A DNA stretch of 50,343 nucleotides, taken from contig JBAYHY010000004.1 of assembly GCA_041665885.1 (NCBI GenBank), forward strand, positions 1 through 50,343. Direction: 5' to 3'. Shown piece after piece: positions 18,795-40,608 of this stretch (within the stretch, counting starts at the first letter, position 1; each line of letters starts with the position of its first letter). The notes under the pieces are model-generated. The model saw nothing but the letters and a program-made list of their open reading frames with translations. It did not search any database and was not told where the DNA came from. This DNA is from Minisyncoccota bacterium (GTDB taxonomy: Bacteria > Patescibacteriota > Minisyncoccia > Phycocordibacterales > UBA9973). A program made the translations under genes and the position numbers.

Positions 18795-21700
18795 CTATGG
18801 TGTGGGGGTTGGGGTCGAACCATCAGCGACCGGAACGGGTGCGGCTGGCGCAGGATCGACGCAAGTATTATCCACCAAGGTTTGTGGCGAAGGACACACC
18901 GGAGGAGCTGGAGGAGTATCACCCGTAGCAACACCAGTTGAATCACCACCGAGGGAATCCACACAAACATTATCAACTAAAATCTGCGAAGCGGTACAAG
19001 TCATGGGTTCTGAACCCGTCGAGGAATCGGGAGTTGTGGACACTGTGCTTCCTCCGCCGGAAGCGGCAGTTCCGGCGAGAAGATTATCAAGCTCTGTTCG
19101 GGTGATACACGTCTCACCGGCAAGATCTGTCACACAAAGCTCCTTGGTGTGCACGCGGTTTGCAAAAAAGTCTCCTATTCCATTCGTCGTGTCTGCCATC
19201 CAAGCATCCATCCTATCAAAGAAAGCAACCACAAAAGATTCTGCCGGTGAACCCGGGAGCGGAATGACGGTACCGGTAATACTTTCTAAATTCAAATCTA
19301 AATCTTGTACTGATTTGACGAGAAGCGGAGTAAGTTTGGAATAATCAACCATCCAAGGCGTCTCTCCAGGCGACAATGGATCTATCCCATTATCCCCATT
19401 CGTAGTCACCGCTTCCGGATAAATATTATTTAACTCTTGAGCAATAAAACCGGTCATCCTTTGTTTGCTCGGGTCGCTAACAAAAGCAAAATCTGCAACA
19501 TTAATTTTCATCAAATCTGATAACCCAAGAGCAGTCGGCGCAATGTCTTCTTTAATACGCATATCAGAAGAAGTATTGAAAGCAACTGTCGTGGCAGCAT
19601 TTTGAGAAACACTTCCGATTACCGTGGCATCTGTTCTCTGAAAAGTAATCAATTGAGAAGCGGCCACTCCGGTATTGTTTCCCCCTAGAATTAATAATCC
19701 GTTGTTTTGAGTTGTTCCTCCGAGGGTATTGGCAATTCTAGCTGTCGGCGTACCCGCTGCTGGAGTTCCAGTAACATGAAAAATATTGGAAGGTGACGTC
19801 GCGCCGATGCCGACATTGCCACTTCCTAATATTGTCATCTTCTCCGACAATGTTTGAAGGGTGGTACCCGAGGCGAGCGTCGTTCCGGTAAGGAATGAAA
19901 TACTACTTGCCCCCGTACCCGTTCCAGCACCTGAAGTAAGGATTAAATTACCCCCAACAATATTAGTTCCTCCCGCAACCGTTCCCCCGGCGGCTACAGT
20001 CAAAGCTCTACCCATGGTTCCTGAGGCAGTGTTTTCTATCCAAATCTTTTGTGCAACACCGTTTCCTAAGCTTAAAATATTTGTAGGACTCGTAGTTCCG
20101 ATTCCGACTTTTCCACCACCAGTAGCAATAAGTACGCTACCATAGGCCGCCAATCCTATATTTGCCCCGCCGCTTAAATAAAGATTTCCTCCCGGAGTAC
20201 CGGATGACCCATACGACCCGGCAACGATTTTTAAATCATAAGAATTAGCCATATTATCAACGTCTAGTTTTATGCTTTGCGCGGTAGCAGAATTACTATA
20301 AAGTGCGATATTCCCGGCCACTTCTAGTTTTTCTCCTGGAGTAATTGTCCCAATTCCAACCCTATGATTGGCAGAATCCACAAAAAGAGAGTTGGTGTCT
20401 ACGGTAAGATTATGAATTCCCAAATCTACATTTGACGTTCCGCCAGTGTAAGGAATGTAACCAGAAAGAGAAGGAATGTCGCTCAACAAGGCAAGGGTTC
20501 CGGTGGTGGAAGGCATTGTAATAATATTATTCCCCGTATAACCAACTGCTGGGACTAATCGTAAATATGCCCCCATTGTTCCATTTGTGAAAATCATACC
20601 ATCTGGGGTCACGGACACCTCCCGTCTTGCTCCAATCGATGGCGTGATTCCACTATAAAGACCACTATATCCGAATCCAGAAAAATAGGAATCTGTCCCG
20701 TCGTCAAAACTCGTTGTTGCTCCATAAGAATTCCAACTTGCGATGCTAGTATCATCGTCGTTGCTTGAATTAATGCCAGTTGTATCTATAACAGTATGCT
20801 CTGATGTACCATTTACAGAATCCACTGCATAGACAGTCAATGCAGAAGTGGCGTTTCCTAAAAGGGAAATTTGAGAGGCCAACAAACCACCGTTTGCATT
20901 CGCCGCACCATCGCCGATCTGCAAAACTCCTGCGGCGTTGCGAGAAAGAGAAACGTCATTACTCCCACTTCGTGCATCTACTGTGCTTCTCCAAGTATTT
21001 AACATGCCACTACCATGTTCCAACCCCAAAGTATCAAGCCTTAAAACCACATCGTTTGTTCCGTTTTTTACCTGATATTCTCCGACAGGGGAAGATTTTG
21101 TAGTAAAATTATTTGCTGTCACAACACCACTATTGTCTATATTAAATTTAGTAGCTCCTCCCACCTGTGCGTCAATCAAATACTGCGCTCCACTACCGAC
21201 TGCTGTTTCTGTGCGGTTGATGAGGAGGTCGGTGTTGGCGGCGGTAGAAGCGACTTGATTGTAGGTAGGTTTGATAGCAAGGGTTGCGCCAGTGCCCGCG
21301 GTATTTGTGAAATTCCTAGCAAACAACGCATTGGTATAGGAAGCAGTAGACCCGACAGATTCACCCGAAAAAGCAATTCCAACGTCAGCGTTACTTACAG
21401 AATAACTATACATGGCTAGCCCCCTACCAGCGGCATCTGGCGTAGTGTAACTACTTCCCGAAAAAGAAAACAAATACGGCGACACGGTAGCCGCGCTACC
21501 AAGTCTGAAACCAAGTCCGGTAGTGGTAATGCCCGCATTCGTCACGCTAAACTTACTAACCCCTCCCACTTGTGCGTCTATCAAATTCCCACTTGTTTTT
21601 GCGGTTGGGTTAATTAAGAAATCTGTGAGAGCGGAAGAGTCGGCTTTGGCAAGAGATATTTGTGACGCCAACAAGCTCCCATTGGCATTCGCCGCACCAT

Positions 21701-24700
21701 CACCGATCTGCAAAACTCCGGCAGCATTTCGAGAAAGAGAAGTATCCATGTTTGTATTACCCGCCACGCCCGGCTCCCAACCAATGATAGAGGTATTGCT
21801 GCTTGATAACTTTGCCGCAGGAAGGAATTGACCATTTGAGGAATATCTTGCCTGTACTGTGCCACCTGCGACAAAATCGATAATGTTATTACTACTAGAA
21901 AAGATACCTGTGTTCGTTCCGCCACCACTGAAAGTTATGCTAGGGGCAGAAACTAAACCACTAGATAATAAAAGTCTTCCATTTGCATTCGCTCCGCCGT
22001 CGCCGATTTGGACTATCCCTGCGGCGTTGCGGGAAAGAGATAGGTCGGGAGTGCCATATGCGGAAGTAGTGGACGACCACTTCCGCATATTAGCCGCTGG
22101 CATCTCTTCATCGCCAGCTATGTAACTACTTCCCAAGATGTAGGCCGCCCCGCCAACATTGGAGTATAGGGTGTATCCAGCCACCTTGAAACCTACAGCA
22201 GAGTTGATATATCCATCCTTGTCCACACTAGCCTTCACGGCTCCCGTACTATCCTGCCATTCTTGAAGATTTGCAGTTTGTCCTGCGTAACCCTTAATGA
22301 TTGCACCTTTGTCGGTTATTGCACCAGAGTTAATTTGAAGTTTCGCACCTGGCGTCGTCGTCCCGATGCCGACGGAACCAGAGAAATAAGCACCGCCTGA
22401 AGTGTTGATAGAAGCAAGCTCTGACCCCGATGTCCCAGAAGAAACGTAAAGTGAACTAACTTTTATTTGTCGAAATGTTGTACCTGCTGCATTTGCAAAA
22501 GTGTAAGCATTGCCGCTGTCGTTCACGGCTGGCGTACCATAAAATAGAAGATCTTTAGATGATAAGTAGAATGAGTTGCCTGCTTGAACATTTACTGACG
22601 CATATATATTTCCTGTTACTTCTAATTTGTTACCTGGATTGGTATTCCCTATCCCGACGTTGCCGCTTACAATTAACCCATTAGAAGGAGCTGCGGTACC
22701 TGCATAACTGCCGAAGGCTGCATTGCCTTCTATGTCAAGAGTGTTCACGGCAGTACTTCCTGAAGTTCCGTATCGTAATCCAGTGTCGGTAAGTCTCATC
22801 CATTGCGTAACCGCTGTGCCAGTTATTCTGCCGAAGTATGAAGTACTACCAGACTGCACCATAGAAAATGCATTGTTTGCCGCACTACCAATCACAAAAC
22901 CCGTACCAGACCAGCCAGTTTGGCTTATTTGCCCAAGAGCTGCTGTTGCAGACGGGATACTGGTAAATGTACCGCCAGTGTTGGCTACTTGTATTCCACC
23001 AACTGTAGGACTCGTCGTCCCGATGCCGACACGATGATTCGTCGCATCAACAAAAAGAGAATTAGTATCTACCGTAAGATTATGAATTCCTAAATCTACA
23101 TTTGACGTTCCGCCGGTGTATGGAATGTAACCAGTGGTTAAATCGCTTACTAAAGCTAAGGTTCCTGTAGTGGCTGGCAGGGTTAAAGTTGGAGTGCCGG
23201 CTGCTGCCGCGACTTGGATAATTGCTTTGCCGGAAGTTGCCCCCGCCAAGGAGAGAACTCCAGCTGTTGTTCCGGCGGTGCCAAGGGTTAATAGTTCTCC
23301 GGGAGCAGAGTTACCAATACCGATTTTACCATTCTTGTCTATTACTGTTAGTGCCGTACCTGATGAATTTATCCATTGTTGCAAGTCTGCCGTCTGGGAA
23401 GCAGCGCCGCGAATCTTCAACCCAGTAGTTGCCGCAGTGGCCGCAGTTATGTTTATTGCGTCCGAACCTCCTGACTGAATGTTTGCACCATTGGTTGCAT
23501 AACCAGTGACTACGTATTTACCACTTATCAAAAACCCTGAACCATTAGCGGAAATATAACCGGCATTTGATGTAATTGCATTGAATGCCGTGTTCCAGTT
23601 ACCGGCACCAGCCTTCTCTGAATACCAAATATAACTCCCATCCATATAGTGAGCATCAATCCAATAATTGTCATACCCAGGAAAGTTAAATACTCTGTGC
23701 GTATAGGTATGCTTGGTGGGCACACCCGCATTCCAGGCATAAAATTCTTGATTTATATCTCTTGAATATCCACCATCACCAATAGCCGCGGGGATAGCGG
23801 TAGCACCCAGTGTTAGATTGCCAGCACTTGTTATTTTAGACAACACAGTCCCCGTACTATCCTGCCACTGTTGCAAATCTCCGGTCTGCCCTGCGTAACC
23901 CTTAATGATTGCACCGATGTCTGTTGTGACACCAGAGTTAACTTGAAATTTCGCCCCCGGCGCCGTTGTTCCGATTCCAACGTTGCCACTCGTTGGAAGA
24001 ATTATTATTCCCTGACTTCCAATTGATGCGTTGTAACCAATAAAGCCATATGTACCGCCTCCGCCAGAACCCAAATTCAAAAACGAACCAGCGGCAGCAG
24101 AATCACGAACAACCGCACCGAAGGTAGAACTACCATACACATCTAATTTTGCTCCTGGGCTCGTTGTCCCCACTCCCACTCGATGATTTGTCGCATCCAC
24201 AAAAAGAGAATTGGTATCTACGGTGAGATTGTGAAGTCCTAAATCAACATTTGAAGTTCCACCAGTATAAGGAATGTAGCCAGTAGTTAAATCACTTACC
24301 AAGGCTAAAGTTCCTGTGGTCGTCGGTAAGGTCAAAGTCGGAGTGCCTGCGGCAGCTGCTACTTGGATAATTGCTTTGCCGGAAGTGGCTCCTGCCAAAG
24401 AAAGGACTCCGGCTGTTGTTCCGGCGGTACCGAGGGTTAGTAATTCTCCCGGGGCGGCATTTTTGATACCAATTTTGCCCGTGGGAAATAGCACGTTGCC
24501 AGCAGAAGTATAATTAACATCCTGATAAACAGTGGTGCCGGCCTTATTTCTTATCATAAACCCATTGGCATCAAAACTTCCTATGTTGTTAACAATAAAC
24601 CTTCCGTTGCCAGTCCCCTCGTCTTTTAAATTAACCCAATTACTTGCTCCAAAATAGGCATCTCCGGCTACTTGAAACATAGCACTCGGAGAAACCGTTC

Positions 24701-25292
24701 CGATGCCAACATTGCCGCCCTTAAAATAGATCCCGGCTGTTGATGACGGCCCAATCCATGATTCTGCGAGAGTGGTTAGAGGATTAATGAGGGTAAACGA
24801 GTTTGCCGCGTTGGTATAAACTCCACTCACGACCGTAAGCGCACTATCTGCCACCATCGCAGCCGGAACTGCTCCGAGTTTTTTACGCGACACCATTTCT
24901 CCATCCCACCCAGGTGTCCCAGTACCTCCGATATTTACTCCGAGATAAAGTGTTTGATTAAAATCAACTCCAGTCAAAGGGGTAACCCCTCCGAGGAGAA
25001 CGCTAAAAAGTCCATTCGTCACCTGCACCTTGTCCGTATTTATTCTCGTCTCTGTCCAAATAGCAGTACCACCAGTCGGAACTGTGTACAAAGCAAACTC
25101 CATATTGTAAGTACCGTTGGCGACGGCTACTCCGGCCGAAGTGGTAAGTTTTCCTTGATAATTCATTTGCTTGTTTATCGCAGACTCTACGTCTCCGGTC
25201 GGAAAAAATATTATTACCAAAAAGACAAAAAGCGAAATAATATTTTTTACATTTTTTCTACTTGTTAACTTTTGTGAAAATAATATTCTCAT
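18795..25292 (-). CDS. Giant secreted tail-fibre/tailspike-like adhesin with peptidase S74 intramolecular chaperone
   Basis: Signal peptide; MNYQGKL...GLFSVLLG N-domain; many GIGTTxP repeats; SDMRIKEDI...GFIAQEL...VDYSKLTPLLVKSVQDL. Confidence 0.85.
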   Translation of the reverse strand: MRILFSQKLTSRKNVKNIISLFVFLVIIFFPTGDVESAINKQMNYQGKLTTSAGVAVANGTYNMEFALYTVPTGGTAIWTETRINTDKVQVTNGLFSVLLGGVTPLTGVDFNQTLYLGVNIGGTGTPGWDGEMVSRKKLGAVPAAMVADSALTVVSGVYTNAANSFTLINPLTTLAESWIGPSSTAGIYFKGGNVGIGTVSPSAMFQVAGDAYFGASNWVNLKDEGTGNGRFIVNNIGSFDANGFMIRNKAGTTVYQDVNYTSAGNVLFPTGKIGIKNAAPGELLTLGTAGTTAGVLSLAGATSGKAIIQVAAAAGTPTLTLPTTTGTLALVSDLTTGYIPYTGGTSNVDLGLHNLTVDTNSLFVDATNHRVGVGTTSPGAKLDVYGSSTFGAVVRDSAAAGSFLNLGSGGGGTYGFIGYNASIGSQGIIILPTSGNVGIGTTAPGAKFQVNSGVTTDIGAIIKGYAGQTGDLQQWQDSTGTVLSKITSAGNLTLGATAIPAAIGDGGYSRDINQEFYAWNAGVPTKHTYTHRVFNFPGYDNYWIDAHYMDGSYIWYSEKAGAGNWNTAFNAITSNAGYISANGSGFLISGKYVVTGYATNGANIQSGGSDAINITAATAATTGLKIRGAASQTADLQQWINSSGTALTVIDKNGKIGIGNSAPGELLTLGTAGTTAGVLSLAGATSGKAIIQVAAAAGTPTLTLPATTGTLALVSDLTTGYIPYTGGTSNVDLGIHNLTVDTNSLFVDATNHRVGIGTTSPTVGGIQVANTGGTFTSIPSATAALGQISQTGWSGTGFVIGSAANNAFSMVQSGSTSYFGRITGTAVTQWMRLTDTGLRYGTSGSTAVNTLDIEGNAAFGSYAGTAAPSNGLIVSGNVGIGNTNPGNKLEVTGNIYASVNVQAGNSFYLSSKDLLFYGTPAVNDSGNAYTFANAAGTTFRQIKVSSLYVSSGTSGSELASINTSGGAYFSGSVGIGTTTPGAKLQINSGAITDKGAIIKGYAGQTANLQEWQDSTGAVKASVDKDGYINSAVGFKVAGYTLYSNVGGAAYILGSSYIAGDEEMPAANMRKWSSTTSAYGTPDLSLSRNAAGIVQIGDGGANANGRLLLSSGLVSAPSITFSGGGTNTGIFSSSNNIIDFVAGGTVQARYSSNGQFLPAAKLSSSNTSIIGWEPGVAGNTNMDTSLSRNAAGVLQIGDGAANANGSLLASQISLAKADSSALTDFLINPTAKTSGNLIDAQVGGVSKFSVTNAGITTTGLGFRLGSAATVSPYLFSFSGSSYTTPDAAGRGLAMYSYSVSNADVGIAFSGESVGSTASYTNALFARNFTNTAGTGATLAIKPTYNQVASTAANTDLLINRTETAVGSGAQYLIDAQVGGATKFNIDNSGVVTANNFTTKSSPVGEYQVKNGTNDVVLRLDTLGLEHGSGMLNTWRSTVDARSGSNDVSLSRNAAGVLQIGDGAANANGGLLASQISLLGNATSALTVYAVDSVNGTSEHTVIDTTGINSSNDDDTSIASWNSYGATTSFDDGTDSYFSGFGYSGLYSGITPSIGARREVSVTPDGMIFTNGTMGAYLRLVPAVGYTGNNIITMPSTTGTLALLSDIPSLSGYIPYTGGTSNVDLGIHNLTVDTNSLFVDSANHRVGIGTITPGEKLEVAGNIALYSNSATAQSIKLDVDNMANSYDLKIVAGSYGSSGTPGGNLYLSGGANIGLAAYGSVLIATGGGKVGIGTTSPTNILSLGNGVAQKIWIENTASGTMGRALTVAAGGTVAGGTNIVGGNLILTSGAGTGTGASSISFLTGTTLASGTTLQTLSEKMTILGSGNVGIGATSPSNIFHVTGTPAAGTPTARIANTLGGTTQNNGLLILGGNNTGVAASQLITFQRTDATVIGSVSQNAATTVAFNTSSDMRIKEDIAPTALGLSDLMKINVADFAFVSDPSKQRMTGFIAQELNNIYPEAVTTNGDNGIDPLSPGETPWMVDYSKLTPLLVKSVQDLDLNLESITGTVIPLPGSPAESFVVAFFDRMDAWMADTTNGIGDFFANRVHTKELCVTDLAGETCITRTELDNLLAGTAASGGGSTVSTTPDSSTGSEPMTCTASQILVDNVCVDSLGGDSTGVATGDTPPAPPVCPSPQTLVDNTCVDPAPAAPVPVADGSTPTPTP

Positions 25293-25295
25293 TTT

Positions 25296-25655
25296 CTAGT
25301 TTATTGTCTCCACCTCGGAGGAAAGAGTTTTTTTACCTTCCCCTAAATCTGTTTTATTGTTCTTTCCATAAAAATAAATACTAAAAACAAGAATGCCCAG
25401 AAAAAGTATCCCGGAAATAATAAAAATATTTTGAGTTCTTCTTTGGGATAAGAAATCCCCAATGGCAAACTTATCGTGACGGATTTTTTGCTTAAAAATG
25501 TAATTCTTTATTTCCTCTTCGGTGGTAAACCAATTCCCTCCAATTTTCTCCCCTTTCATCTCTCCTTTGCGAATCAGGGCGCTCAAATAATCTGAATGGT
25601 ATCCAGAAATCTTTGATGCTTGGCTTAATGATATGACTTTTTTTAGATTTTCCAT
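25296..25655 (-). CDS. HTH_17/excisionase-like DNA-binding domain fused to a C-terminal TM helix
   Basis: ISLSQASKISGYHSDYLSALIRKGEMKGEKIGGNWFT; TM IFIISGILFLGILVFSIYF. Confidence 0.75.
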   Translation of the reverse strand: MENLKKVISLSQASKISGYHSDYLSALIRKGEMKGEKIGGNWFTTEEEIKNYIFKQKIRHDKFAIGDFLSQRRTQNIFIISGILFLGILVFSIYFYGKNNKTDLGEGKKTLSSEVETIN

Positions 25656-25763
25656 TATATGAAGATATATAATAGTTTCTCGGATAGACGAGATATCAAA
25701 AAACGGCGTCTCGGCTAAACGATATTTATTTATACCCTTATATTATAATAGGAAATCCCCTCT

Positions 25764-25783
25764 ATATCCACTAGTTATCCACA
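25764..25783 (+). promoter_or_regulatory. DnaA-box pair upstream of the HTH-S74 operon
   Basis: ATATCCACT (25764) and TTATCCACA (25775). Confidence 0.5.
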
Positions 25784-25807
25784 GTTTTTATTAAACATAA
25801 AAAAAGC

Positions 25808-27094
25808 TTATATTTGTTGAGTTTTTTTCTTGCGTTTCAGCAAAATACGCAATAAAAATAAGGCAAATATCGTTGCAATTATTAAAATTAGATAGAGGTA
25901 TGCGTTGCTTGAAGAATCGCTTTCTCCTGGGACTAAATTCTCCTTAACCAACAGCGCCCCCTCGCCTATTATAGTTGAGATATTATCCTTGTATCGATGA
26001 ATTTTTATATGATAGATGCCGGCATTTGGGAGTGAAGGAATTACACTTTGATAACGCTTGCTGTCTGCATTATATGAAAATAAATATTGCCCAATAACCA
26101 CCCCTTCCCCATCCACAACTTCCATCCAATCGTCAGGAAGAGTTTTTATATTCGTATCGATGATTGTGCTTTTGTTATTTTCAATCGTGATTACTTTTGT
26201 GCTCGTAAGTATTTCCGCTTGTTGATTGTATTGATATACAAAAAAGTTTTCTGGGATAAAAACTTCTGGGGGAATCTCTGTTCCCGGGGCCGGAGGCAAA
26301 GAAGAATAAGCAGATTGAGAAATTCCTGTGCCTGTTGAAAAATTTCCATTTATGTCTCTCGAAAATAATACATAAAAATATTTTTTTCCTTCTGTCACAT
26401 TTTTATCCAAAAATTTTTCTCCATTTCCTTCATAAATTAATTTCCCCAAGAATGGGTCTCCCCTGAAACGATCTTCATGTCTCATGATACGAATATAAGA
26501 AAAATTATTGTCCAGCGGATTCTGCCAGGTGATAGTGATACCGGAAACATCAGCAGACGTTTTCACATTTAGCGGACCCGAAGGGAGGGTGGTATCTTTT
26601 AAAAATTTTGTAAAAAAATAAGTCGATGGATGTATGCTATTTTTTCCATTAATGTCCTGACTTTCAATCGTAAAATAATACATTGTGCCAGCCTTTAGAT
26701 TCAATATTTCCATCCTGTGTTCTCTGGCAAAAACAACACTACGAAGGATGCCCTCTTTCGCTTCCATGGTCACTCCCCATTTTATGGTACTTATGGTGCT
26801 GACAGAAGTGTCCCAGCTGATAATTGCATTAACAAAATTTGCCTGAATAGACAAATTATAAATAGGGATATTCTCTCTAATTTTACTCCCGCTACTGGTG
26901 GAGGGTGGCGGGACCACGATTGCACAATCTACGGGACAAGAAACAACGGTCTCGCCGACTTCACATATGCCGTTATTATTACAACCATCAACTCCTAGAT
27001 TAACCTTAATTCCATCTGCCCCAGTATAAGCAAAAGCAGCATTATGCTGCAACAAAAATAAGACAATTATTAAAAAAACTAGTCGCTTTCCCAT
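25808..27094 (-). CDS. Secreted fibronectin type III-like protein with Cys-rich N-terminus and C-terminal TM anchor
   Basis: CNNNGICEVGETVVSCPVDC; LKAGTMYYFTI and ITITWQNP FN3-like segments; C-terminal TM plus basic tail. Confidence 0.7.
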   Translation of the reverse strand: MGKRLVFLIIVLFLLQHNAAFAYTGADGIKVNLGVDGCNNNGICEVGETVVSCPVDCAIVVPPPSTSSGSKIRENIPIYNLSIQANFVNAIISWDTSVSTISTIKWGVTMEAKEGILRSVVFAREHRMEILNLKAGTMYYFTIESQDINGKNSIHPSTYFFTKFLKDTTLPSGPLNVKTSADVSGITITWQNPLDNNFSYIRIMRHEDRFRGDPFLGKLIYEGNGEKFLDKNVTEGKKYFYVLFSRDINGNFSTGTGISQSAYSSLPPAPGTEIPPEVFIPENFFVYQYNQQAEILTSTKVITIENNKSTIIDTNIKTLPDDWMEVVDGEGVVIGQYLFSYNADSKRYQSVIPSLPNAGIYHIKIHRYKDNISTIIGEGALLVKENLVPGESDSSSNAYLYLILIIATIFALFLLRILLKRKKKTQQI

Positions 27095-27103
27095 ATAAAA
27101 TTA

Positions 27104-27877
27104 TTATAACACCAAAGCAGTGACGACGATCGAAGCAGAATAACTGCCAGAAGTTTGGATATGCGCCGAACCTGACTCAGCGCGAAAACGCACATTTACC
27201 GCGCTGCCCGTAGGCTGATTGCTGCCCCCCTTGCCGGCAATTGTCTTGGGCGAAGTGGAAAGCCCATCCCAACATTTACCACTAACCTCTCCCGTGCCAG
27301 TATTGCATATCAAACCATTGTCTTTAAAACGTGCATTTGTATCGACACCCTCTGGCGAAAAACCAAAAGCTGAAGTGGAAGAAAGAATAGAAAAATTATA
27401 ATCTGGGTCTGTCCCGGCCGGGGTATAATCAGAAAATGAATCATCAGCAGATCGAAGAGCTGGAATAGTTGTCGTTTTAATATCCATAACATAACCGGCA
27501 GTGTTATCTGTCACAATTTGCCAAGACATTGTCCCTTCTGTCGTTTCCCCATTTATCCCTCCGATATGAGTCAGGGCTAAGTCTGCGGGGGTAGAAATAG
27601 ATATATAGCTTTCCTGCATCTGCCAAAAACCCGCATGCAGATAATAATTGTTGCTATTTGAATCCCCCGTACCCACTTCCCCCAAAGTATCGTCAAGACT
27701 ATAGGTAGTACTCGTAGAAGCTTCTCCCCCGACATTGATACTGTCAGAGGTAATACGATAGGTATTACTTTGCATCGATTCCGCAAAAATCGTGTATAGA
27801 GGTATAAATAATAAAGAAATAAAGAAAAAAACCATAGCACTTCTTTTCTTAAGAAAAGATGTAATATTTTTTTTCAT
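27104..27877 (-). CDS. Secreted two-domain protein; C-terminal domain paralogous to the WxL/fimbrial-like subunits
   Basis: Signal peptide; W.IVTDNTAGY...PAL....DSFSDYT...FGFS; ends GSYSASIVVTAL. Confidence 0.6.
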   Translation of the reverse strand: MKKNITSFLKKRSAMVFFFISLLFIPLYTIFAESMQSNTYRITSDSINVGGEASTSTTYSLDDTLGEVGTGDSNSNNYYLHAGFWQMQESYISISTPADLALTHIGGINGETTEGTMSWQIVTDNTAGYVMDIKTTTIPALRSADDSFSDYTPAGTDPDYNFSILSSTSAFGFSPEGVDTNARFKDNGLICNTGTGEVSGKCWDGLSTSPKTIAGKGGSNQPTGSAVNVRFRAESGSAHIQTSGSYSASIVVTALVL

Positions 27878-27884
27878 TTCGTGA

Positions 27885-28862
27885 TTATTTTTTTCTTAAT
27901 TCAAAACGAGTCAAAATATAATAGAAGGACACAACCAGAAGCAGAATTACTGCAAACACGGGAACAAGTATTTTCCATGGAATTATCCAAAAGGACAACT
28001 TGGCATCAGCATATTCATTGTTATAACCTTTGTACAAAGAAAGATTTGCGGTGTAGCGCCCCAAACTAAAACCATTGGTCCAGTTTACCTCTCTGTATCT
28101 TATGGAATCTGGAAGAACAAAATACGCATCGACGGGTAACGTGCCGACGGTCTGACCAAATATGTTTTTTATAGTGATAGTTCCATAGGGCACAAGGTGA
28201 ACATTCCCCGTATTTTTGTATGCGATTTCAAACCCAGCCGGCCGGCTACTATAAAACATTTGAGTCGGCCCTATTGTCTTAAAATTTTCAATATTTCCTT
28301 CTTCTTTCCCCTCTCCGTTAATTCTTAACAAGAAAAGAGACCCGATTCTGGAAATAATACGAGTTTTGCCTTCAACCTCGCTTGTCCCGTCAGTCCCCAG
28401 CTTGTCAGGGTCATTTGATACAATTAACGCGCCGTAATAACCTCTAGGCTCAGCATCCTTGGGCACCGATACAGTGACCGGAATAGTGATTTTCTCTCCG
28501 AACTCTAAACTAAATTCTGTAATTTCAGGAATGATAAAATCCTTAAGTGAATAGGGACTGTTTGCATCCCCGAGAAGCACGACTGGCTGCTTCGCATCAT
28601 TTGAACCGATGAAATCCTCCGTGCTTAATTTGAATTTAACCGTCTTGTTTACTCTGTTGGTTATCGAAATGTTCTTAACCATGTTTTCTCCAGGATTTAG
28701 AAAAACTTCTGTCTTTCCTGGCTCTACCACGAAGTCATTTTGCGCAGTTACGTCAACATTGATCTTCGTATATGCTTCTGCCTGTAAGGGCAATGAAGAA
28801 ATACCTACAAATACAGAAATGATTGTTACACTATATATTATTTTTTTTATTGAAAAAATCAT
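27885..28862 (-). CDS. DUF916/DUF3324-like (WxL-interacting-protein-like) membrane-anchored protein
   Basis: Signal peptide, two predicted beta-sandwiches (ISITNR...ITIPVTVSVP..GYYGALIV; YKNTGNVHLVP.G.I.I), IIPW before C-terminal TM. Confidence 0.65.
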   Translation of the reverse strand: MIFSIKKIIYSVTIISVFVGISSLPLQAEAYTKINVDVTAQNDFVVEPGKTEVFLNPGENMVKNISITNRVNKTVKFKLSTEDFIGSNDAKQPVVLLGDANSPYSLKDFIIPEITEFSLEFGEKITIPVTVSVPKDAEPRGYYGALIVSNDPDKLGTDGTSEVEGKTRIISRIGSLFLLRINGEGKEEGNIENFKTIGPTQMFYSSRPAGFEIAYKNTGNVHLVPYGTITIKNIFGQTVGTLPVDAYFVLPDSIRYREVNWTNGFSLGRYTANLSLYKGYNNEYADAKLSFWIIPWKILVPVFAVILLLVVSFYYILTRFELRKK

Positions 28863-28878
28863 TTTTAAATTTTATTTT

Positions 28879-30276: not shown

Positions 30277-30294
30277 TTATCCACCTTATCCACA
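30277..30294 (+). promoter_or_regulatory. Two abutting DnaA boxes upstream of the subunit genes
   Basis: TTATCCACC-TTATCCACA. Confidence 0.55.
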
Positions 30295-30312
30295 GTACTT
30301 GAATTTTATGAT

Positions 30313-31203
30313 TTATATTTTTTCCCCGACTAAAGCTTTAATTCTTTCTTCCACGGGTGGATGAGTGGCAAAAAGTCCGGTAATTTTTTTACCTAGTTTT
30401 GAACCCTTCGGGTCGGCGATGTATAGATGCGCTATCACACTCGATTGATGCGCCATGGGTTGACTATATTCAGAAATTTTTCGAAGCGCGTTCGCCAGTC
30501 CTTCCGGATAACGGGTAAGTAGTGCCCCGGATGCATCTGCTAGAAATTCACGTTTTCTGGAAATCGCTAATTGAATCAAAATTGCAAAAAGTGGCGCAAG
30601 AATCGAAAGAATAATTCCAACAAGCATAAACAAACCACCTCCCCCTTCACCGTCTCTCCTTCTGCCAAAAAATAAATTTCTCCTGAAGACATCTGCGGCA
30701 ATGGTGACGAAACCGACAAGGACTACGACGACAGTAGAGAGCAACATATCTCTGTTGCCCACGTGTGAAAGTTCATGCGCGATTACTCCTTCCAGTTCGG
30801 TCTTGTCCAAAATGGCAAGTAGGCCGGTCGTGGCGCAAACGACGGCATGCTTTTTATCTCTACCCGTAGCAAAAGCGTTCGGGGCCCTGTCCTCTACCAC
30901 GTACACTCTCGGCATCGGCAAACCAGCCGTGATAGAAAGATTCTCCACGCTCGTGTATAAATCAAAATATTCTTCCCTTTTGGCTTCTTTGGCACCGGCA
31001 AGCTTGAGCACGATTTTATCTGAAAACCAGTAAGAAAAAACGTTCATCAAAATACTGAAAATAACAAAAAAATAAAGAATATCGGGGCTACCGTAATAAA
31101 TACTGAAAAACCAGCCGATTCCAATGACTATCACAAAAAATGCTGACATTAAAACCCAGGTTTTCGTAACATTTTTTGTTTGTTCGGTATATAACGTAGC
31201 CAT
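30313..31203 (-). CDS. htpX: Zinc metalloprotease HtpX (M48)
   Basis: PNAFATG, GVIAHELSHV, SRKREFLADA, FATHPP. Confidence 0.95.
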   Translation of the reverse strand: MATLYTEQTKNVTKTWVLMSAFFVIVIGIGWFFSIYYGSPDILYFFVIFSILMNVFSYWFSDKIVLKLAGAKEAKREEYFDLYTSVENLSITAGLPMPRVYVVEDRAPNAFATGRDKKHAVVCATTGLLAILDKTELEGVIAHELSHVGNRDMLLSTVVVVLVGFVTIAADVFRRNLFFGRRRDGEGGGGLFMLVGIILSILAPLFAILIQLAISRKREFLADASGALLTRYPEGLANALRKISEYSQPMAHQSSVIAHLYIADPKGSKLGKKITGLFATHPPVEERIKALVGEKI

Positions 31204-31700
31204 TATTCTATGGTAATGGGAATTAAAATGCTTTTATCGTTCTCTGGAAGCCCAGAAGCGTTATCGTTGTGAACTTCAATATAAGCTGGCCCCTTTGGCA
31301 GTGTCGAAAAATCAATGGTGGTCTTGAAGGAAACGGGCCCCGCGGTCATCCATTCACTCGTAGCATTGCCATTGCCAGCCTGAAGTAAATTTTTGTCTTT
31401 ACCCAAAACATTTATTAAAATATTTCCTTCAAAAAAATAACCCCCTTTGACAGAACCGGTGATTTCTACCACGCCTCTGACTTTTTGATTTGGCAGAACG
31501 GAAAGAAAAACTAAGTCGTCTTTATTCCCGAAAACTTGTAGCTCATTTTCGTTCGACGTTTTTCCCTCCTGATTTTGACTCCAAAAAGGAAAATACGTTT
31601 CTTTGTTCTCGAACATCACCAAAAGGGCGACTATCATCAGAATAATCAGAATAAATAATAGCGCAGTATTTAATTTCGAACCAAAAAAATTATTTTGCAT
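31203..31700 (-). CDS. Membrane-anchored Gmad2-like Ig-fold protein
   Basis: ITGSVKGGYFFEG, WMTAGPVSF, DNASGLPEND; start reassigned to ATG 31700. Confidence 0.7.
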   Translation of the reverse strand: MQNNFFGSKLNTALLFILIILMIVALLVMFENKETYFPFWSQNQEGKTSNENELQVFGNKDDLVFLSVLPNQKVRGVVEITGSVKGGYFFEGNILINVLGKDKNLLQAGNGNATSEWMTAGPVSFKTTIDFSTLPKGPAYIEVHNDNASGLPENDKSILIPITIE

Positions 31701-31740
31701 ACCTATATCGTACACAAAAATATGCTAAAAATCAATTCAA

Positions 31741-34012: not shown

Positions 34013-34025
34013 ATATTATTCAAAA

Positions 34026-35720: not shown

Positions 35721-35768
35721 TTTTGTTATAATTATAATACATGAAATCTTTATTAATATCCATAAAAG

Positions 35769-35777
35769 TTATCAACA
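35769..35777 (+). promoter_or_regulatory. DnaA-box-like site in the divergent promoter region
   Basis: TTATCAACA. Confidence 0.4.
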
Positions 35778-35827
35778 GTTTTCTTTTATACGCCTTATTT
35801 CTATGTTAAAATAAAATCACAAACACA

Positions 35828-36445
35828 ATGATAAAGTTTTTACCAAATAAAAATTCTTTTAAGCTAGTCTCAAAGAAGGATGCATATAAGAAGGTCGAAA
35901 CTTTTGACGACTCACCCCTCGAAGAATTGACAGAAAATGTTAAAAATTTTGATAAGCGAGCTTTTCTAAAAGTATTGGGTATTGCAGGGCTTGGATTATT
36001 CGCTAGTTCACTTTTTCCAAAGAAAACCGACGCTTATGTTGTGGGAAGTACTCCGACTTCAAATGTCGTCGGAATAAAAGATTCCTCAAACACCAGAATA
36101 AACCCAGCCACAGACGACACCCTGAGTTCCCTCATCTCTGGGCAGGGAGTGAGCAAGCTTTCCACAAGCCTCTCTGCTTCTGGGGCAATTCATGCTCCCG
36201 CCTCTGGTAAAAAAATACGAGTCTACGCATCTCGTTTTTCCTTGACGGCAGATGCCACCTCCGTTTCATTTCGTTTTACTCCGAGTGGGACCGACCATGA
36301 AAAATACATATCTCCAAAAACTGGTGGCCTCTATGGAGCGAACAATCATCCGAACTATATTGAAGGAGGGGTGGATCAAGTGTTATACTGTGCGATAGTG
36401 GGGACCACAAGTGTGCAAATTAATATAGATTATTTAGAGGTCTAA
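35828..36445 (+). CDS. Putative Tat substrate with KR-type twin-arginine signal
   Basis: DKRAFLK (35951-35971), h-region VLGIAGLGLFASSLF, TDA-Y cleavage-like site; same operon as tatC. Confidence 0.65.
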   Translation: MIKFLPNKNSFKLVSKKDAYKKVETFDDSPLEELTENVKNFDKRAFLKVLGIAGLGLFASSLFPKKTDAYVVGSTPTSNVVGIKDSSNTRINPATDDTLSSLISGQGVSKLSTSLSASGAIHAPASGKKIRVYASRFSLTADATSVSFRFTPSGTDHEKYISPKTGGLYGANNHPNYIEGGVDQVLYCAIVGTTSVQINIDYLEV

Positions 36446-36460
36446 TTTTTAATAATAATT

Positions 36461-38590
36461 ATGACAAGAATATCAAAAGAATTATTGGTGACCAGTCCCG
36501 GAACTTTCAATTATCTGAGCGAGAGCGCATATGATTATACGAAATGGAATTTAGGCAAAGGGATTATTTATAACGCCGGGGCAACCGCAGTAGAAAAATA
36601 CATCGCCCCCTGTTTTGATGCTATTCGACCCCTCGAAGAAAGCACCGGCTTTGCTGTGGCCCAGGTGTTTGCTTACAATTTTAGCCCTACTTATGATTAT
36701 TTATTTGGAATTGAAAACTTGGCCACCGCCGTGGCGACAAGGCGTGTGCATTTATGGAAAATAAACAAAAAAGACGGCACACGAAGCTGGAATGGTTTTA
36801 TCACCATGACTCTTCTCACCGCCACGGCTCACACGGTTCGTGATTTTAAAATTGATGTAAAAAATGAATCGACGGGAACAGTCGGAGTGTCCGGTACTGC
36901 AGTTACCGGTAGTGGCACTCTTTTTGCAACCAATAAAGTCGCCGTAGGGGCCAGAATCGGCTTTGGTTCGAATGACCCAACGCAAATTACTACTTGGTAC
37001 AGAATTGCCACGAGAACATCAGACACCGCTTTGGTTTTAAACGTAACGGCCGGGACAATTGCCTCGGGGACATCTTATGTTATTCAAGAATTTAGACCCA
37101 TCTATGTGGCGACAAATGCTACTACGACCAACGGAGGCATCCACTACGGTAAGGGAATCAGCTTAGAAGATTTCACTGTCACGGGTACGACGATTCCCGT
37201 TGCTGTCGCCACCGATGACCAAAAAGCAATGTATTGGCTTAAGGATGCCTCTACTCAAACAAACCTAGTCGCCGCCGGTGCTGCCGCAGATTGGAGCACC
37301 ACCACACCTACCACCCTTGATTTTTATGTGTTGGACTTGGTGTCGGCGGGTAATTATAAAGTTTTTAAATATAACATTAGGGCCCCCCTCACCGTAGCCT
37401 CCGGCAATTCTGTTTCTGCCTTTTTGTTTGCGACAGGAAACAATGCTTTCACCGGCACGGGCTCTCAGCTCGCAAATCTTACTTTGGCTACCGCAAACCA
37501 TGGACCCCAGTCTGGGATACCTGCTTTATACTTTATATCCACGACCAGATTTATGGCCGCCCCTCTTTCTGCAATAGTAATCTCCTCGACTACTTGGATT
37601 ACAAACGTCATCGCAGAAATACCTACAGGAGGAATAACGACATACACCGTCACTGGAGCACTCGCTTCAATAGAATATATTGATGAAATTGACAGCTTTC
37701 TTCTAATGACTTCTTCTATCTATAATTACCTCACGCAATTCGTTTCAAGCGGTATTGCTTTTGATAGTGTCTGGGGCAGAAATGTATCCGCCCTAGAACA
37801 ATCTACGAAAGACGACGGCTGTCCAAAACAATATTCCATAAACGCAGTCGCCGGGATTGCCCACAACCGGGATGCTTCAGCCAGAACATATATAGTGAAA
37901 CAATCCACCACCGTAGGAATAGCGGTCGTGTATGTGATGGCGGCAGGTACTCAGTGGGGAGGCAATAACTATCTCGTAAGCCCGGAGATAGTCACACCAA
38001 ATGTTTTACACTACTACAGAGCATTTATAAACTCAGTTAACAGGGTCGGTAGTGAAGCACTCGGTAGGCCGGTAGAACCAGTAAAGCTTTTTATTCGTAG
38101 CACAAACATAACTAGCGATATAACGAGTGGCTGGACGGAAGTGGTAGAGGATAATAATATTTCAGGATTCTCTGGGGCAAGCTCTGTGCAGTTTAAAATT
38201 GAATTTAAAATATTTGGAGATAGTTGTATCCCCGCTCGTGTTTTAGGAATAAATCTCTCCTACGAAGACAACACTTCCGACTCTCACTTCTCGCTCTCTG
38301 TAGAAAAGTCCTCGGCTACAAGCAAAATATTTGCTTGGTGGTTTGATAATGATTTTGGTACAGTTGTACCGCCACTCACCGTCAAGCTTTATGACGCCGA
38401 CACGGGTGGACTTTTGCTTACAGATGATACTGTCCTGTCTGCTAACGGACTTTGGGAAAAAACCACCGACGGTACGAGCTGGGCACCCTATGACACGGTA
38501 GATAGAGGAAACAACACAACCTGGATACGATATACCCCATCATCACTAGCAGACAATGTAAAAGTCGAAGCATATTTACAGCAATCATAA
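36461..38590 (+). CDS. 709-aa beta-rich, virion-structural-like protein without signal peptide
   Basis: GTVGVSGTAVTGSGTLF...VGARIG...YRIATRTSDTAL module reminiscent of phage tail proteins. Confidence 0.55.
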   Translation: MTRISKELLVTSPGTFNYLSESAYDYTKWNLGKGIIYNAGATAVEKYIAPCFDAIRPLEESTGFAVAQVFAYNFSPTYDYLFGIENLATAVATRRVHLWKINKKDGTRSWNGFITMTLLTATAHTVRDFKIDVKNESTGTVGVSGTAVTGSGTLFATNKVAVGARIGFGSNDPTQITTWYRIATRTSDTALVLNVTAGTIASGTSYVIQEFRPIYVATNATTTNGGIHYGKGISLEDFTVTGTTIPVAVATDDQKAMYWLKDASTQTNLVAAGAAADWSTTTPTTLDFYVLDLVSAGNYKVFKYNIRAPLTVASGNSVSAFLFATGNNAFTGTGSQLANLTLATANHGPQSGIPALYFISTTRFMAAPLSAIVISSTTWITNVIAEIPTGGITTYTVTGALASIEYIDEIDSFLLMTSSIYNYLTQFVSSGIAFDSVWGRNVSALEQSTKDDGCPKQYSINAVAGIAHNRDASARTYIVKQSTTVGIAVVYVMAAGTQWGGNNYLVSPEIVTPNVLHYYRAFINSVNRVGSEALGRPVEPVKLFIRSTNITSDITSGWTEVVEDNNISGFSGASSVQFKIEFKIFGDSCIPARVLGINLSYEDNTSDSHFSLSVEKSSATSKIFAWWFDNDFGTVVPPLTVKLYDADTGGLLLTDDTVLSANGLWEKTTDGTSWAPYDTVDRGNNTTWIRYTPSSLADNVKVEAYLQQS

Positions 38591-38596
38591 AAATAT

Positions 38597-38767
38597 ATGG
38601 CATTAACCTCAATACAACCACCACCACAAAATAAAGCCGTGATTTACTTTGAAAGAGGAAATGTCGGAACCGTGGAAGATATTCAGGCCAAGGGGGAAAA
38701 CGAGCTCCAAATTCCTCTAATTGTGGCTGGGGGTGGAGGAGGAAATATTTTTATTATGTCAGAATAA
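38597..38767 (+). CDS. 56-aa protein MALTSIQPPP...VAGGGGGNIFIMSE (not in ORF track)
   Basis: ATG 6 nt after the upstream stop, TAA 11 nt before the next ATG. Confidence 0.7.
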   Translation: MALTSIQPPPQNKAVIYFERGNVGTVEDIQAKGENELQIPLIVAGGGGGNIFIMSE

Positions 38768-38778
38768 TTTTAAAATAC

Positions 38779-39384
38779 ATGATTCACATCGAAAAAGACC
38801 AGCTAGTACCAGAATATGAAAACCTAAGGACCCTTTCAGACTCCGGTGATTATAACGATGACGACATTATTGAATGCTACAACCCCGATGATTCAAGTAT
38901 TGCTATTTGTGGTTTTACTTCCTCTTTCATAAAATACGGGGGACTCATGTATCGGTTCAATGACCCGGCAGAGCTGGGAGCGGAAATTTTAAAAATTGAC
39001 CCTGAATCAACCCACTCAGCCGCCTCTTTCGTCAGGATGAAGGAAGAGCTGTCAAAAAAAATGGACGAGGGTTCGCTCGAGCCGGAATCATTGCAACAAG
39101 CACTCAAAGAGGAACAAACTATGATGGAGGAAAAAATAAATGAACCTGACCCTGAGATAGATACAGAAGAAATACCGGAAGAAGAAGTTCCTCCTGAAAC
39201 AGAACCAGAAATTATTCCCGATTCTGAGACAGAAATTATTCCAGATCCTGAGACAGAGCCTGAGATTATCCCTGAACCTGAGCCACCCATCGAAACGGAA
39301 CCAGAGCCAATCATTGAACCTGAACCTACCACCCCCGACCCGACAGTAAGCACCCTGTCTCGCAAGGGTAAAAAATTTTTTTAA
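38779..39384 (+). CDS. Acidic protein with Pro/Glu repeat tail and basic C-terminus
   Basis: (E/D)PE(T/I)E repeats in aa 130-190; ends RKGKKFF. Confidence 0.7.
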   Translation: MIHIEKDQLVPEYENLRTLSDSGDYNDDDIIECYNPDDSSIAICGFTSSFIKYGGLMYRFNDPAELGAEILKIDPESTHSAASFVRMKEELSKKMDEGSLEPESLQQALKEEQTMMEEKINEPDPEIDTEEIPEEEVPPETEPEIIPDSETEIIPDPETEPEIIPEPEPPIETEPEPIIEPEPTTPDPTVSTLSRKGKKFF

Positions 39385-39425
39385 CTATCTGAAGCAGGTA
39401 TAATCCCTTTAACCTTCGAAAATAA

Positions 39426-40175
39426 TTGATTAATGATTTGCTTGAAAATATAAAAAAATTCCTTCCATTTATAGAGGAGCTGAGGCGCAGACTTTATACT
39501 TCTGCCGTAGTTTTTGCTTTTGTTTTTATCGGTGGGTTTTTTTCCACCGGCCTAGTCATCAAGCATTTCGTTTCAACTTTTCACATTGAGGGGGTAACCA
39601 TTACGACCACTTCTCCTTTCCAGCTCACCGACCTAGCCGTAGACCTGGGGATATTTTTTGCTTTGATTGTCACTATTCCGTTGGCCATATTCCAGATATA
39701 TTCTTTTATCTTCCCGGGATTAAACAAAAGAGAACAAAAATTATTGTTATTGTCTATCCCCATATGTCTTCTCTTGTTTGTGTTTGGCTTTATTTTTGGC
39801 GCTGCTATTCTCTTTTTCGCTTTTAAAATTATCGCAAAGATTAATGAAAGTTTGGGTATTTTAAATATTTGGGACATTAGCTCCTACCTTTCTCAGATTT
39901 TTATTACTTCTGCGCTGTTGGGACTATTATTCCAATTCCCACTAATTTTAACGGGACTTATTAAGCTAGGTTTATTTGGTGTTTCCGCTCTCAAAAAAAA
40001 GAGGCACTTCGCCTGGCTTGTTGTTTTTATTATTACCTCTCTTCTTCCTCCCACCGACGGGTTATCCCTAATCGCAATGTCTTTACCCATGATATTCCTA
40101 TATGAAATAACAATATTCGTCAATCGAAAACCGGTGTTCCTCCCCGTGGAAATAAAAATGGACAAACCAGAATAA
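39426..40175 (+). CDS. tatC: Twin-arginine translocase subunit TatC
   Basis: EELRRRL, FQIYSFIFPGLNKRE, PPTD..S....PM..LYE; six TMs; TTG start. Confidence 0.9.
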   Translation: MINDLLENIKKFLPFIEELRRRLYTSAVVFAFVFIGGFFSTGLVIKHFVSTFHIEGVTITTTSPFQLTDLAVDLGIFFALIVTIPLAIFQIYSFIFPGLNKREQKLLLLSIPICLLLFVFGFIFGAAILFFAFKIIAKINESLGILNIWDISSYLSQIFITSALLGLLFQFPLILTGLIKLGLFGVSALKKKRHFAWLVVFIITSLLPPTDGLSLIAMSLPMIFLYEITIFVNRKPVFLPVEIKMDKPE

Positions 40176-40300
40176 TCGCGATTCAAAAAGGATTGTGCCT
40201 CTTTACTTCCATTCCCCAATGGTCTATCATTATGTGAGTGGCAGAGCCACTGGTCGTACTTTGTAGAGTATTAATATTTATAAAAATAACTAACAAAACC

Positions 40301-40483
40301 ATGTTTGGATTAGGAACTAAAGAAATAATAATTATAGCAGTAATCGCGATTCTTCTTTTTGGTTCAAAAAAGATTCCAGAGCTTGCGAAAAGTTTAGTGG
40401 AGGCTATCCGCCACATAACCGGAGCATTCAGGAATGTTGACGAAACAGCTTCTCGCTCAGATAACAATAAAAAGAAGTCTTAA
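40301..40483 (+). CDS. tatA: Twin-arginine translocase subunit TatA/E
   Basis: MFGLGTKEIIIIAVIAILLFGSKKIPELAKSL; start reassigned to ATG 40301. Confidence 0.92.
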   Translation: MFGLGTKEIIIIAVIAILLFGSKKIPELAKSLVEAIRHITGAFRNVDETASRSDNNKKKS

Positions 40484-40587: not shown

Positions 40588-40608
40588 CTCTGAAATTAAT
40601 TATTCAAC

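Follow-up and report, generated by a model that had tools for sequence, protein, structure and literature searches.

The region between gatC and lemA in the genome of a Minisyncoccota bacterium (assembly GCA_041665885.1, contig JBAYHY010000004.1) is best explained as the juxtaposition of two separately inherited surface systems, a reading to which we give a probability of around 70%. The first is an operon resembling those of a pilus (system 1, 18795-30242), the second a cassette of Tat (twin-arginine translocation), cohesin-dockerin, and phage-derived genes (system 2, 31741-40483), and the genes of HtpX and of a Gmad2 protein lie in between (30313-31715). The window, i.e., the whole stretch of DNA that was analyzed, is an entire contig of 50 kb (50,343 nucleotides) of a 643-kb genome in 16 contigs; the labels given to its nearest relatives in public data are Candidatus Nomurabacteria or Paceibacterota. 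The interval of interest is delimited by gatC (18453-18725, Pfam GatC, 5.6e-12) and lemA (40609-41163, Pfam LemA, 2.3e-59) and holds 17 genes. Attachment to other microbes is the way of life of ultra-small bacteria of the Candidate Phyla Radiation (CPR), and little is known of the means by which they recognize and hold their hosts. The region may have a role in host attachment, in which case this small genome would carry two candidate attachment devices. In practice, it should be annotated as two units, not one.

An earlier note on this DNA, made from the sequence alone, had regarded the region as a single multi-module apparatus and had set the co-occurrence of its modules in other genomes as a test. 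The outcome splits the region in two. The giant fibre and the fimbrial-like genes of system 1 always travel together: in around 25 Paceibacteria loci, from several genera and families, the operon order is pilin (one to three copies), chaperone, PamT-like subunit, Fn3 protein with a transmembrane (TM) segment, small helix-turn-helix (HTH) protein with a TM segment, and giant protein. The cohesin-dockerin and Tat genes of system 2 are also always found together. The gene for its protein of 709 amino acids (aa) is present in only 8 of the 201 genomes of the order, each from a different family, and all 8 (the window genome and 7 others) have one and the same set of eight genes in an unbroken row. 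They encode two cohesin-like TM proteins, a dockerin fibre, a carrier, the 709-aa protein (one to three copies), an acidic protein, TatC, and TatA, in a divergent or collinear arrangement depending on the genome. The two blocks are distributed independently of each other. The chaperone family of system 1 occurs in 64 of the 201 genomes and in 4 of the 8 with the cassette, its homologue being missing from the other 4 (Fisher p=0.27). When cassettes with other cargo are counted, it is present in 6 of 13 genomes (Fisher p=0.35). Six genomes carry both systems, which are adjacent in the window genome only; in the other five they lie on different contigs or at a distance of around 90 kb or more.

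The nearest relative (locus L040, with a chaperone 90% identical and DNA around 75% identical) has system 1 without system 2. It is collinear with the window at 25807-31223 and again from 40616 on, and lacks 31695-40615, which corresponds to the whole cassette and most of Gmad2. At this cassette-less site (L040 7512-7650), Gmad2 is cut down to the gene of a 42-aa TM peptide, and this remnant is all that separates lemA from htpX. In G057, HtpX adjoins lemA directly, which is its normal place. Neither HtpX nor Gmad2 is conserved with either system in the loci examined.

In the alternative view, the pilus, the giant fibre, the cohesin-dockerin anchors, and the Tat-exported phage parts form one integrated host-attachment organelle, and their adjacency is functional. 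The genes from 35720 down to 18795 are indeed on one strand with short gaps between them, and elements of the two systems meet elsewhere in the order, which weighs against a strict separation. We rejected the idea that Tat is confined to the cassette, since 25 of the 201 genomes have TatC and in about half of them it is of another type, beside giant-protein genes. This second type is directly downstream of a gene for the giant protein or its N-terminal module in 9 of 12 loci, is followed by TatA where TatA was detected, and in G122 comes after a complete operon (pilin, chaperone, PamT-like, Fn3, giant protein). Cohesin-dockerin sets, for their part, are found inside or beside Pam-type operons (see below for these pili) in G027, G049, G025, L072, and L076; in G027, the genes of a dockerin protein and of two cohesin-TM proteins come right after that of the chaperone. 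However, the second TatC type is distant (26-30% identical to the TatC of the window, with a strong Pfam TatC match), and no convincing twin-arginine (RR) signal candidate was found among the proteins around it. The cohesin-dockerin sets beside Pam-type operons concern only 3 of the 66 chaperone loci overall. Considering also the independent distributions, the adjacency in one of six genomes, the relative devoid of system 2, and the interposed HtpX and Gmad2, we regard a single apparatus as improbable. Its parts may nevertheless belong to a lineage-wide toolkit.

Other statements of the earlier note fared well. The note had described the interval as rich in secreted and membrane proteins, and by a crude hydropathy test 15 of the 17 genes have a signal peptide or another hydrophobic segment, compared with 41% of the 660 open reading frames of the genome (binomial P = 8e-5). 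This count is reached by only 7 of the 644 sliding windows of 17 genes. The gene content that it listed was recovered with two minor corrections of start sites: the likeliest start of the second pilin is ATG 30206 instead of TTG 30242, and that of TatA is M22 (40301), the homologues of TatA beginning with MFGLGTKE. Also confirmed were phage-fibre-derived parts, in the form of the giant protein (S74 domain and PHROG tail-fibre matches) and of the 709-aa protein (relatives in 148 IMG/VR contigs), and membrane scaffolds, in the form of the cohesin-TM proteins, the Fn3-TM protein, and the TM-anchored chaperone. The presence of tail-fibre-like genes in both blocks could be taken to indicate a decayed prophage with surviving tail genes. 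Yet, as the note had stated, capsid, terminase, portal, and integrase genes are missing, with no match to these families among the 17 genes in Pfam, NCBIfam, and PHROG scans. The reading frames are all intact across the region, and both blocks recur in many families as fixed sets that come with cellular genes for export and anchoring. The phage contigs share only three cargo genes with the window genome and none of its other genes consistently. That the region is a decayed prophage is extremely improbable. When scanned as single sequences against these three databases, five kinds of protein (pilins, chaperone, carrier, 709-aa protein, and acidic protein) were blank, and family alignments were needed for them. 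The features are given in Table 1.

Table 1. Features of the gatC-lemA region, in window positions; the last line gives loci of other genomes.
Feature	Position	Strand	Basis or remark
Giant tail-fibre-like surface protein, 2165 aa	18795..25292	-	Pfam, PHROG, synteny
S74 intramolecular chaperone domain of the giant protein, aa 1909-1963, motif SSDMRIKEDIAP	19404..19568	-	Pfam
N-terminal module of the giant protein, aa 38-150	24843..25181	-	Alignment of 26 proteins
119-aa protein, N-terminal HTH_17/excisionase-like domain and one TM	25296..25655	-	Weak Pfam and NCBIfam matches
Fn3 protein, signal peptide and C-terminal TM	25808..27094	-	Pfam fn3 4.4e-5, 24 bits (cut-off 25); TM prediction; conserved operon position
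PamT-like subunit, 257 aa, conserved N-terminal extension and pilin domain (aa 90-257)	27104..27877	-	NCBIfam, hhalign
Membrane-anchored two-domain Ig-like chaperone, 325 aa, PamC/D-, WxLIP-, ElrE-like	27885..28862	-	Profile, AlphaFold2 (AF2), Foldseek, Pfam
Single-domain pilin, paralogue 1, 209 aa	28879..29508	-	AF2 model, pLDDT 90
Single-domain pilin, paralogue 2, 208 aa	29580..30206	-	77.5% identical to paralogue 1
HtpX, M48 membrane protease	30313..31203	-	Pfam Peptidase_M48 7.9e-32
Gmad2 Ig-like TM protein	31203..31715	-	Pfam Gmad2 8.6e-7
Cohesin-like domain, Ig-like domains, TM and cytoplasmic tail, 569 aa	31741..33450	-	Family cohesin evidence; Big_13/DUF7743 matches; 8/8 cassettes
Short cohesin-like TM protein, 190 aa	33440..34012	-	N-terminal domain common to the 569-aa protein; family cohesin evidence
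Secreted repeat fibre ending in poly-Gly and type I dockerin, 564 aa	34026..35720	-	Pfam Dockerin_1; 8/8 cassettes
205-aa carrier, KRxFLK Tat-type signal, Gly/Ala-rich hydrophobic region, AxA site	35828..36445	+	Family alignment
709-aa protein, no signal, no TM	36461..38590	+	IMG/VR relatives; family PHROG match
201-aa acidic protein, no signal, N-terminal 55-110 aa conserved	38779..39384	+	Alignment
TatC	39426..40175	+	Pfam TatC 1.1e-35
TatA, 60 aa from M22 (open reading frame opens at 40238)	40301..40483	+	Pfam TatA_B_E 1.1e-12
Terminator-like hairpin, 17-bp stem, AT-rich, between convergent TatA and lemA	40551..40588		Sequence
Second TatC type, other genomes	L134 (G122:C1:398901-418900) 778-10667; also L062, L135, L139, L140, L145, L146		

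A recent preprint described the Pam pili of the CPR bacterium Ca. Mycosynbacter amalyticus (PamA/B/E/T/C/D/R), where Sec-exported pilins are joined by donor-strand exchange with the help of membrane-anchored PapD-like chaperones, a tip subunit (PamT), and an anchor with Fn3 and TM segments (PamR) (Troman et al. 2026, PMC13278184). In that study, a tail-fibre-like protein co-localizes with pam operons, and the pilins are called exclusive to CPR, Nomurabacteria and Paceibacteria not being named among the main carriers (PMC13278184). As far as sequence comparison goes, system 1 is a remote relative of these systems, a divergent variant of the Pam pilus with single-domain pilins. Like them, it has Sec-exported pilins, a PamT-like subunit, an Fn3 protein with a TM segment as candidate anchor, a co-localized tail-fibre-like gene, and a membrane-anchored PapD/FimC-like chaperone ending in a TM helix, and it lacks an usher and an ATPase. 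Unlike them, it has one chaperone gene instead of two, pilins made of a single domain (around 180 aa when mature) without the nine-strand N-terminal domain of PamA/B/E, and, fixed in its operon, a small HTH-TM gene and the gene of a giant protein whose N-terminal module is specific to the lineage. With it, the range of the Pam pilus would come to include Nomurabacteria, where it would be reduced to a simpler form.

Three paralogous small secreted proteins, the two pilins and the PamT-like protein, connect system 1 to the Pam family. The PamT-like protein matches the NCBIfam profile of CPR_pilus_PamT (NF058579; 1.3e-13, 51 bits) over profile positions 3-129 of 241. Its C-terminal two-thirds are the same domain as the window pilins (hhalign probability 99.8), and its profile aligns with Pam-type pilins (probability 96.2, E 2.6e-9). 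The profile of the window pilins aligns in turn with the C-terminal domains of Pam-type pilins (probability 84.5, E 7e-6). The window chaperone can be linked to bona fide Pam pilins because its homologue adjoins genes matching Pam_pilin_C in G027, a genome of the same genus. Several results weigh against the assignment. The match to NF058579 is far below the equivalog cut-off of 240 bits, the window pilins have no match to Pam_pilin_C (NF058581) even at E <= 10, and the N-terminal domain of PamA/B is missing from them. Hence, they do not have the two-domain architecture of Pam, i.e., a nine-strand N-terminal sandwich, a linker donor strand, and a C-terminal domain. Pilins of this two-domain type (350-400 aa) occur in other loci, and none in the window locus. 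In addition, the AF2 model of the pilin consists of one folded domain whose top fold matches in the Protein Data Bank (PDB), all of them weak (E >= 0.02), are pilin domains of chaperone-usher systems, and a PDB profile search with the pilins gave nothing significant.

The chaperone of system 1 is related in sequence and fold to WxLIP/ElrE of Firmicutes. The profile of its family (16 homologues) matches the WxLIP of E. faecium (PDB 9i25/9i1y) at 3.6e-7. The protein is secreted and has a C-terminal TM segment, and its AF2 model (pLDDT 85) has a pair of beta domains and, after them, a C-terminal helix (aa 296-324). In Foldseek searches, this model matches WxLIP first (7.6e-14), and then CfaA, CsuC, FimC, PapD, and Caf1M (1e-9 to 1e-7). 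The Pfam family WxLIP_PGBD (DUF916, PF06030) matches the chaperone family in 8 of 14 genomes, at best at the cut-off (2.2e-6), the window copy being at 0.036. DUF3324 (WxLIP_HBD, PF11797) has no match on the chaperone family. The WxL domain itself (PF13731) was found in none of the 14 genomes at E <= 0.05, whereas a control Lactococcus genome matches.

In the Elr/WxL pilus of Enterococcus faecalis, a membrane chaperone was shown experimentally to prime pilins and polymerise them by donor strand, and the system was called confined to Bacillota (bioRxiv 10.64898/2026.10.17.759780). The preprint on Pam makes no mention of WxL (PMC13278184), and the one on Elr makes no mention of CPR (bioRxiv 10.64898/2026.10.17.759780). 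The chaperone of system 1 links the two kinds of pili: like WxLIP/ElrE, it has a putative DUF916 N-terminal domain, two Ig-like domains, and a C-terminal TM segment. The operon as a whole also resembles the WxL-WxLIP Csc clusters of Bacilli (PMC10599100), with genes for a small pilin, for a large modular adhesin, and for a terminator or anchor, and the giant protein, like WxL tip adhesins, would pair an invariant attachment module with a variable payload. System 1 differs from Elr/WxL in having no detectable WxL domain, no DUF3324 on its chaperone family, and a conserved module that is N-terminal in the giant protein. A TM-anchored Fn3 protein also takes the place of the anchor based on LPxTG and sortase; by reading of the sequences, no LPxTG protein is encoded in the operon. 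This Fn3 protein is, by analogy, a candidate PamR-like terminator or anchor of the pilus.

We infer that system 1 would work as an usher-less, chaperone-assisted donor-strand pilus. The Sec pathway would export the two pilins, the PamT-like subunit, and the membrane-anchored Fn3 protein. The membrane-anchored chaperone would complete the incomplete Ig fold of a pilin and then pass it to the strand of the next subunit, until the Fn3-TM protein terminates the fibre and holds it in the membrane. One could also imagine a surface complex akin to Csc/WxL in which nothing polymerises and no pilus is formed, the two-domain TM protein anchoring both the giant adhesin and the small proteins that are secreted. 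The original description of WxLIP is that of a surface protein binding WxL and the host (PMC10599100), and the weak fold matches of the pilin model and the missing Pam-type N-terminal domain fit such a complex. However, polymerisation by donor strand was shown for both the WxL/Elr system and the Pam pili, the chaperone model matches the chaperones of chaperone-usher systems, and two elements are conserved in the pilins, a strand-like segment at the N-terminus, which the monomer model leaves unstructured, and a strand at the C-terminus. We therefore consider a non-polymerising complex very improbable and keep a donor-strand pilus as the reading of system 1.

The two pilin paralogues have nearly identical signal peptides and C-terminal strands and diverged cores, a pattern that suits gene conversion or surface variation. 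Other loci show variants of the operon. The locus of G027 mentioned above (G027:C3; L036 7674-19868 and L037 6-3848) is a different Pam-type locus with a 3210-aa beta-helix-like giant protein. Its two 350-aa pilins pass the cut-off of Pam_pilin_C and are followed by the chaperone homologue, a 303-aa dockerin protein, and the two cohesin-TM proteins; cohesin-dockerin seems to replace the Fn3-TM anchor there. Locus L058 (3784-9192) mixes pilin types. A pilin of the single-domain type and a chaperone are accompanied there by a 258-aa protein combining a PamT-like N-terminus with a Pam-type C-terminal domain, and after them come a Pam-type pilin of 362 aa, another chaperone, and another PamT-like gene. 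This locus may represent a stage between the two variants of the operon. The 119-aa HTH-TM gene is kept between the Fn3 and giant genes in at least 15 loci. An HTH_17-like domain is also fused to the N-terminus of fibre-like proteins of 1200-1500 aa beside TatC, at L136 3187-7710 (G204) and L139 5975-9607 (G144), and these fusions question a purely regulatory role of the domain.

The gene of the giant protein is the final one of the operon in all relatives. The protein is composed of a signal or anchor segment, the conserved N-terminal module, long Gly/Thr/Ala-rich repeats (around aa 283-395, 668-780, and 1600-1670), the S74 domain (Pfam Peptidase_S74, 7.9e-9), and a Cys/Pro-rich tail, and it matches three tail fiber families (phrog_9942, phrog_1980, and phrog_18345, 8.6e-26 to 7e-15). 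In characterised phage fibres, the S74 domain drives the folding of the trimer and then cleaves itself. Only the first 150-210 residues are conserved across relatives, and the remainder varies in length and content. The N-terminal module is found downstream of chaperone homologues, including distant ones, in 24 of 66 chaperone loci. As the sole part conserved across relatives, it is a candidate attachment module carrying a variable adhesive payload. The giant protein would thus be a trimeric phage-type fibre whose C-terminal S74 domain folds the trimer before cutting itself off, whose N-terminal module ties it to the pilus or to the cell surface, and whose variable body acts as the adhesin. 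Against a tie to the pilus stands the finding that the module has no detectable link to the pilins, which makes this attachment a guess. It has no match to the pilin profile, the PDB, or Pfam, and we rejected the possibility that it is itself a pilin domain, as hhalign had aligned the signal peptides only. The genome also encodes a stand-alone secreted paralogue of 1082 aa (C1:62805-66053, minus strand), whose C-terminal part aligns with aa 1819-2156 of the giant protein (S74 domain and Cys/Pro-rich tail) at 38% identity. Its gene has an ABC-transporter-like gene on one side and MurJ-like genes on the other, and pilus genes are missing from its surroundings.

The cargo of system 2 has counterparts in phages. 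Full-length relatives of the 709-aa protein in the IMG/VR contigs are 33-63% identical to it and have tail-fibre, tail, virion, and portal genes as neighbours. Among the members of its family, 6 of 10 match phrog_1591 (tail fiber; at best 2.6e-19, the window copy being at 0.045). In 3 phage contigs, the C-terminal domain of the carrier, without the Tat signal, is encoded directly upstream of the 709-aa homologue, and in 7 the N-terminal 55 aa of the acidic protein directly downstream; the order is the same as in the cassette. These results indicate that the 709-aa protein originated in a phage tail-fibre region. In the 80 IMG/VR contigs examined, the 8 kb around the relative are free of genes for Tat, cohesin, dockerin, pilin, and chaperone. 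Cultured-phage records (INPHARED) gave no match to the carrier or to the 709-aa protein, and PDB profile searches with these two proteins gave nothing significant.

The carrier is the protein that would connect this cargo to Tat. Its signal is kept in all 8 proteins, and its mature domain is 55-72% identical across the 8 families. The motif is K-R-x-F-L-K, i.e., a Lys replaces the first Arg of S/T-R-R-x-F-L-K, and it is also present in 4 further cassettes with different cargo. The TatC of the cassette belongs to the sole Tat system of the genome, where no second copy was found. A minimal TatAC pair can be dedicated to one substrate, as for PhoD-TatAdCd in B. subtilis, and the hitchhiking of signal-less partners through Tat is established in E. 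coli for hydrogenase-2 (HybOC) and DmsAB. System 2 resembles these cases in that a TatA-TatC pair stands beside a presumed single signal-bearing substrate, with signal-less partner genes adjacent. It differs from them in its cargo, a module also present in phage tail-fibre regions instead of a cofactor enzyme, in the KR (lysine-arginine) signal found in place of RR in every member, and in the cohesin-dockerin trio that is always included.

The most economical mechanism is that a trio (carrier, 709-aa protein, and small acidic partner) was captured from a phage tail-fibre region and folds in the cytoplasm. The carrier would have gained a KR-type Tat signal, and the complex, or at least the carrier, would leave through the TatAC of the cassette. 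System 2 would be a mobile cassette of eight genes. If true, this would be a new use of Tat, the export of pre-folded phage-type binding proteins. It is also conceivable that only the carrier is exported, the 709-aa and acidic proteins staying in the cytoplasm (e.g., as chaperone or regulator of the carrier) or being released on lysis only. These two proteins have neither signal peptide nor TM segment, a passenger of 709 aa, possibly in oligomeric form, would be an unproven load for a minimal TatAC, and the cargo between carrier and TatC differs in the cassettes of 4 other families, where the carrier is kept. On the other hand, the phage counterparts are encoded in virion and tail-fibre regions and thus act outside the cell, their genes and that of the carrier are kept in a strict order, and hitchhiking has the precedents given above. 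The export of the carrier alone is in our view unlikely, and we favour that of the complex.

The other half of the cassette would hold a fibre at the surface. The dockerin of the secreted repeat fibre is well supported (PF00404, aa 505-552; 2e-9, 37.9 bits for a cut-off of 22.9). The cohesins are putatively identified at the level of the family: Pfam Cohesin matches 5 of 13 members (at best 1.4e-10), and the family profile matches the scaffoldin cohesins 5aoz/5m2s at around 1e-3, the window's own two proteins having no match to Pfam Cohesin (PF00963). The repeat fibre, exported by Sec, would plug its dockerin into one or both of the membrane-anchored cohesins. This arrangement is similar to type I anchoring in cellulosomes, where a secreted protein with a C-terminal Dockerin_1 meets cohesin-family domains on neighbouring cell-bound proteins. 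Unlike in the cellulosome, system 2 has neither enzyme nor carbohydrate-binding module, and its cohesins, recognised through their family only, are anchored by their own TM helix and not by SLH or sortase. If such pairing takes place, it would be a non-cellulosomal use of cohesin and dockerin. Fixed synteny alone ties the Tat-exported proteins to the cohesin-dockerin trio, which counts against contact between the two halves of the cassette; we infer such contact tentatively, as we do the export of the large protein.

We found no published description of the Tat cassette in the literature, and the combination of Tat, cohesin-dockerin, and tail-fibre genes is apparently unpublished. In a broader reading, system 2 would be a surface organelle of Paceibacteria of a kind that has not been described. 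A phage receptor-binding complex would be folded in the cytoplasm, exported ready-made by a private TatAC on a KR-signal carrier, and displayed beside a dockerin fibre held by cohesins, its cargo being swapped between lineages and exchanged with phages. Tat exporters and cohesin-dockerin anchors would serve, in the wider lineage, as exchangeable additions to giant-fibre and Pam-type pilus operons, and the neighbourhood seen in the window would, if this were true, reflect a shared modular surface toolkit. We hold this reading as possible, though with less than even odds.

The composition of the cassettes varies in several ways. One of them (L128, G095:C4, 10256-18185) has three tandem 709-aa paralogues. 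Most 709-aa homologues are longer (800-950 aa) because a segment of 75 aa is repeated three to four times; in the window protein it corresponds to aa 137-210, the part that matches phrog_1591. Four further loci (L143, L147, L148, and L149, from G155, G161, G108, and G229) have cassettes that retain this carrier, TatC, and dockerin fibre. The two cohesin genes are seen in L143 and L149, and the stretches of L147 and L148 end early. The cargo appears to be swappable, because no 709-aa homologue was found at the thresholds used in the 3-8 kb between carrier and TatC of these four loci. The hairpin at 40551-40588, between TatA and lemA, is probably a bidirectional terminator.

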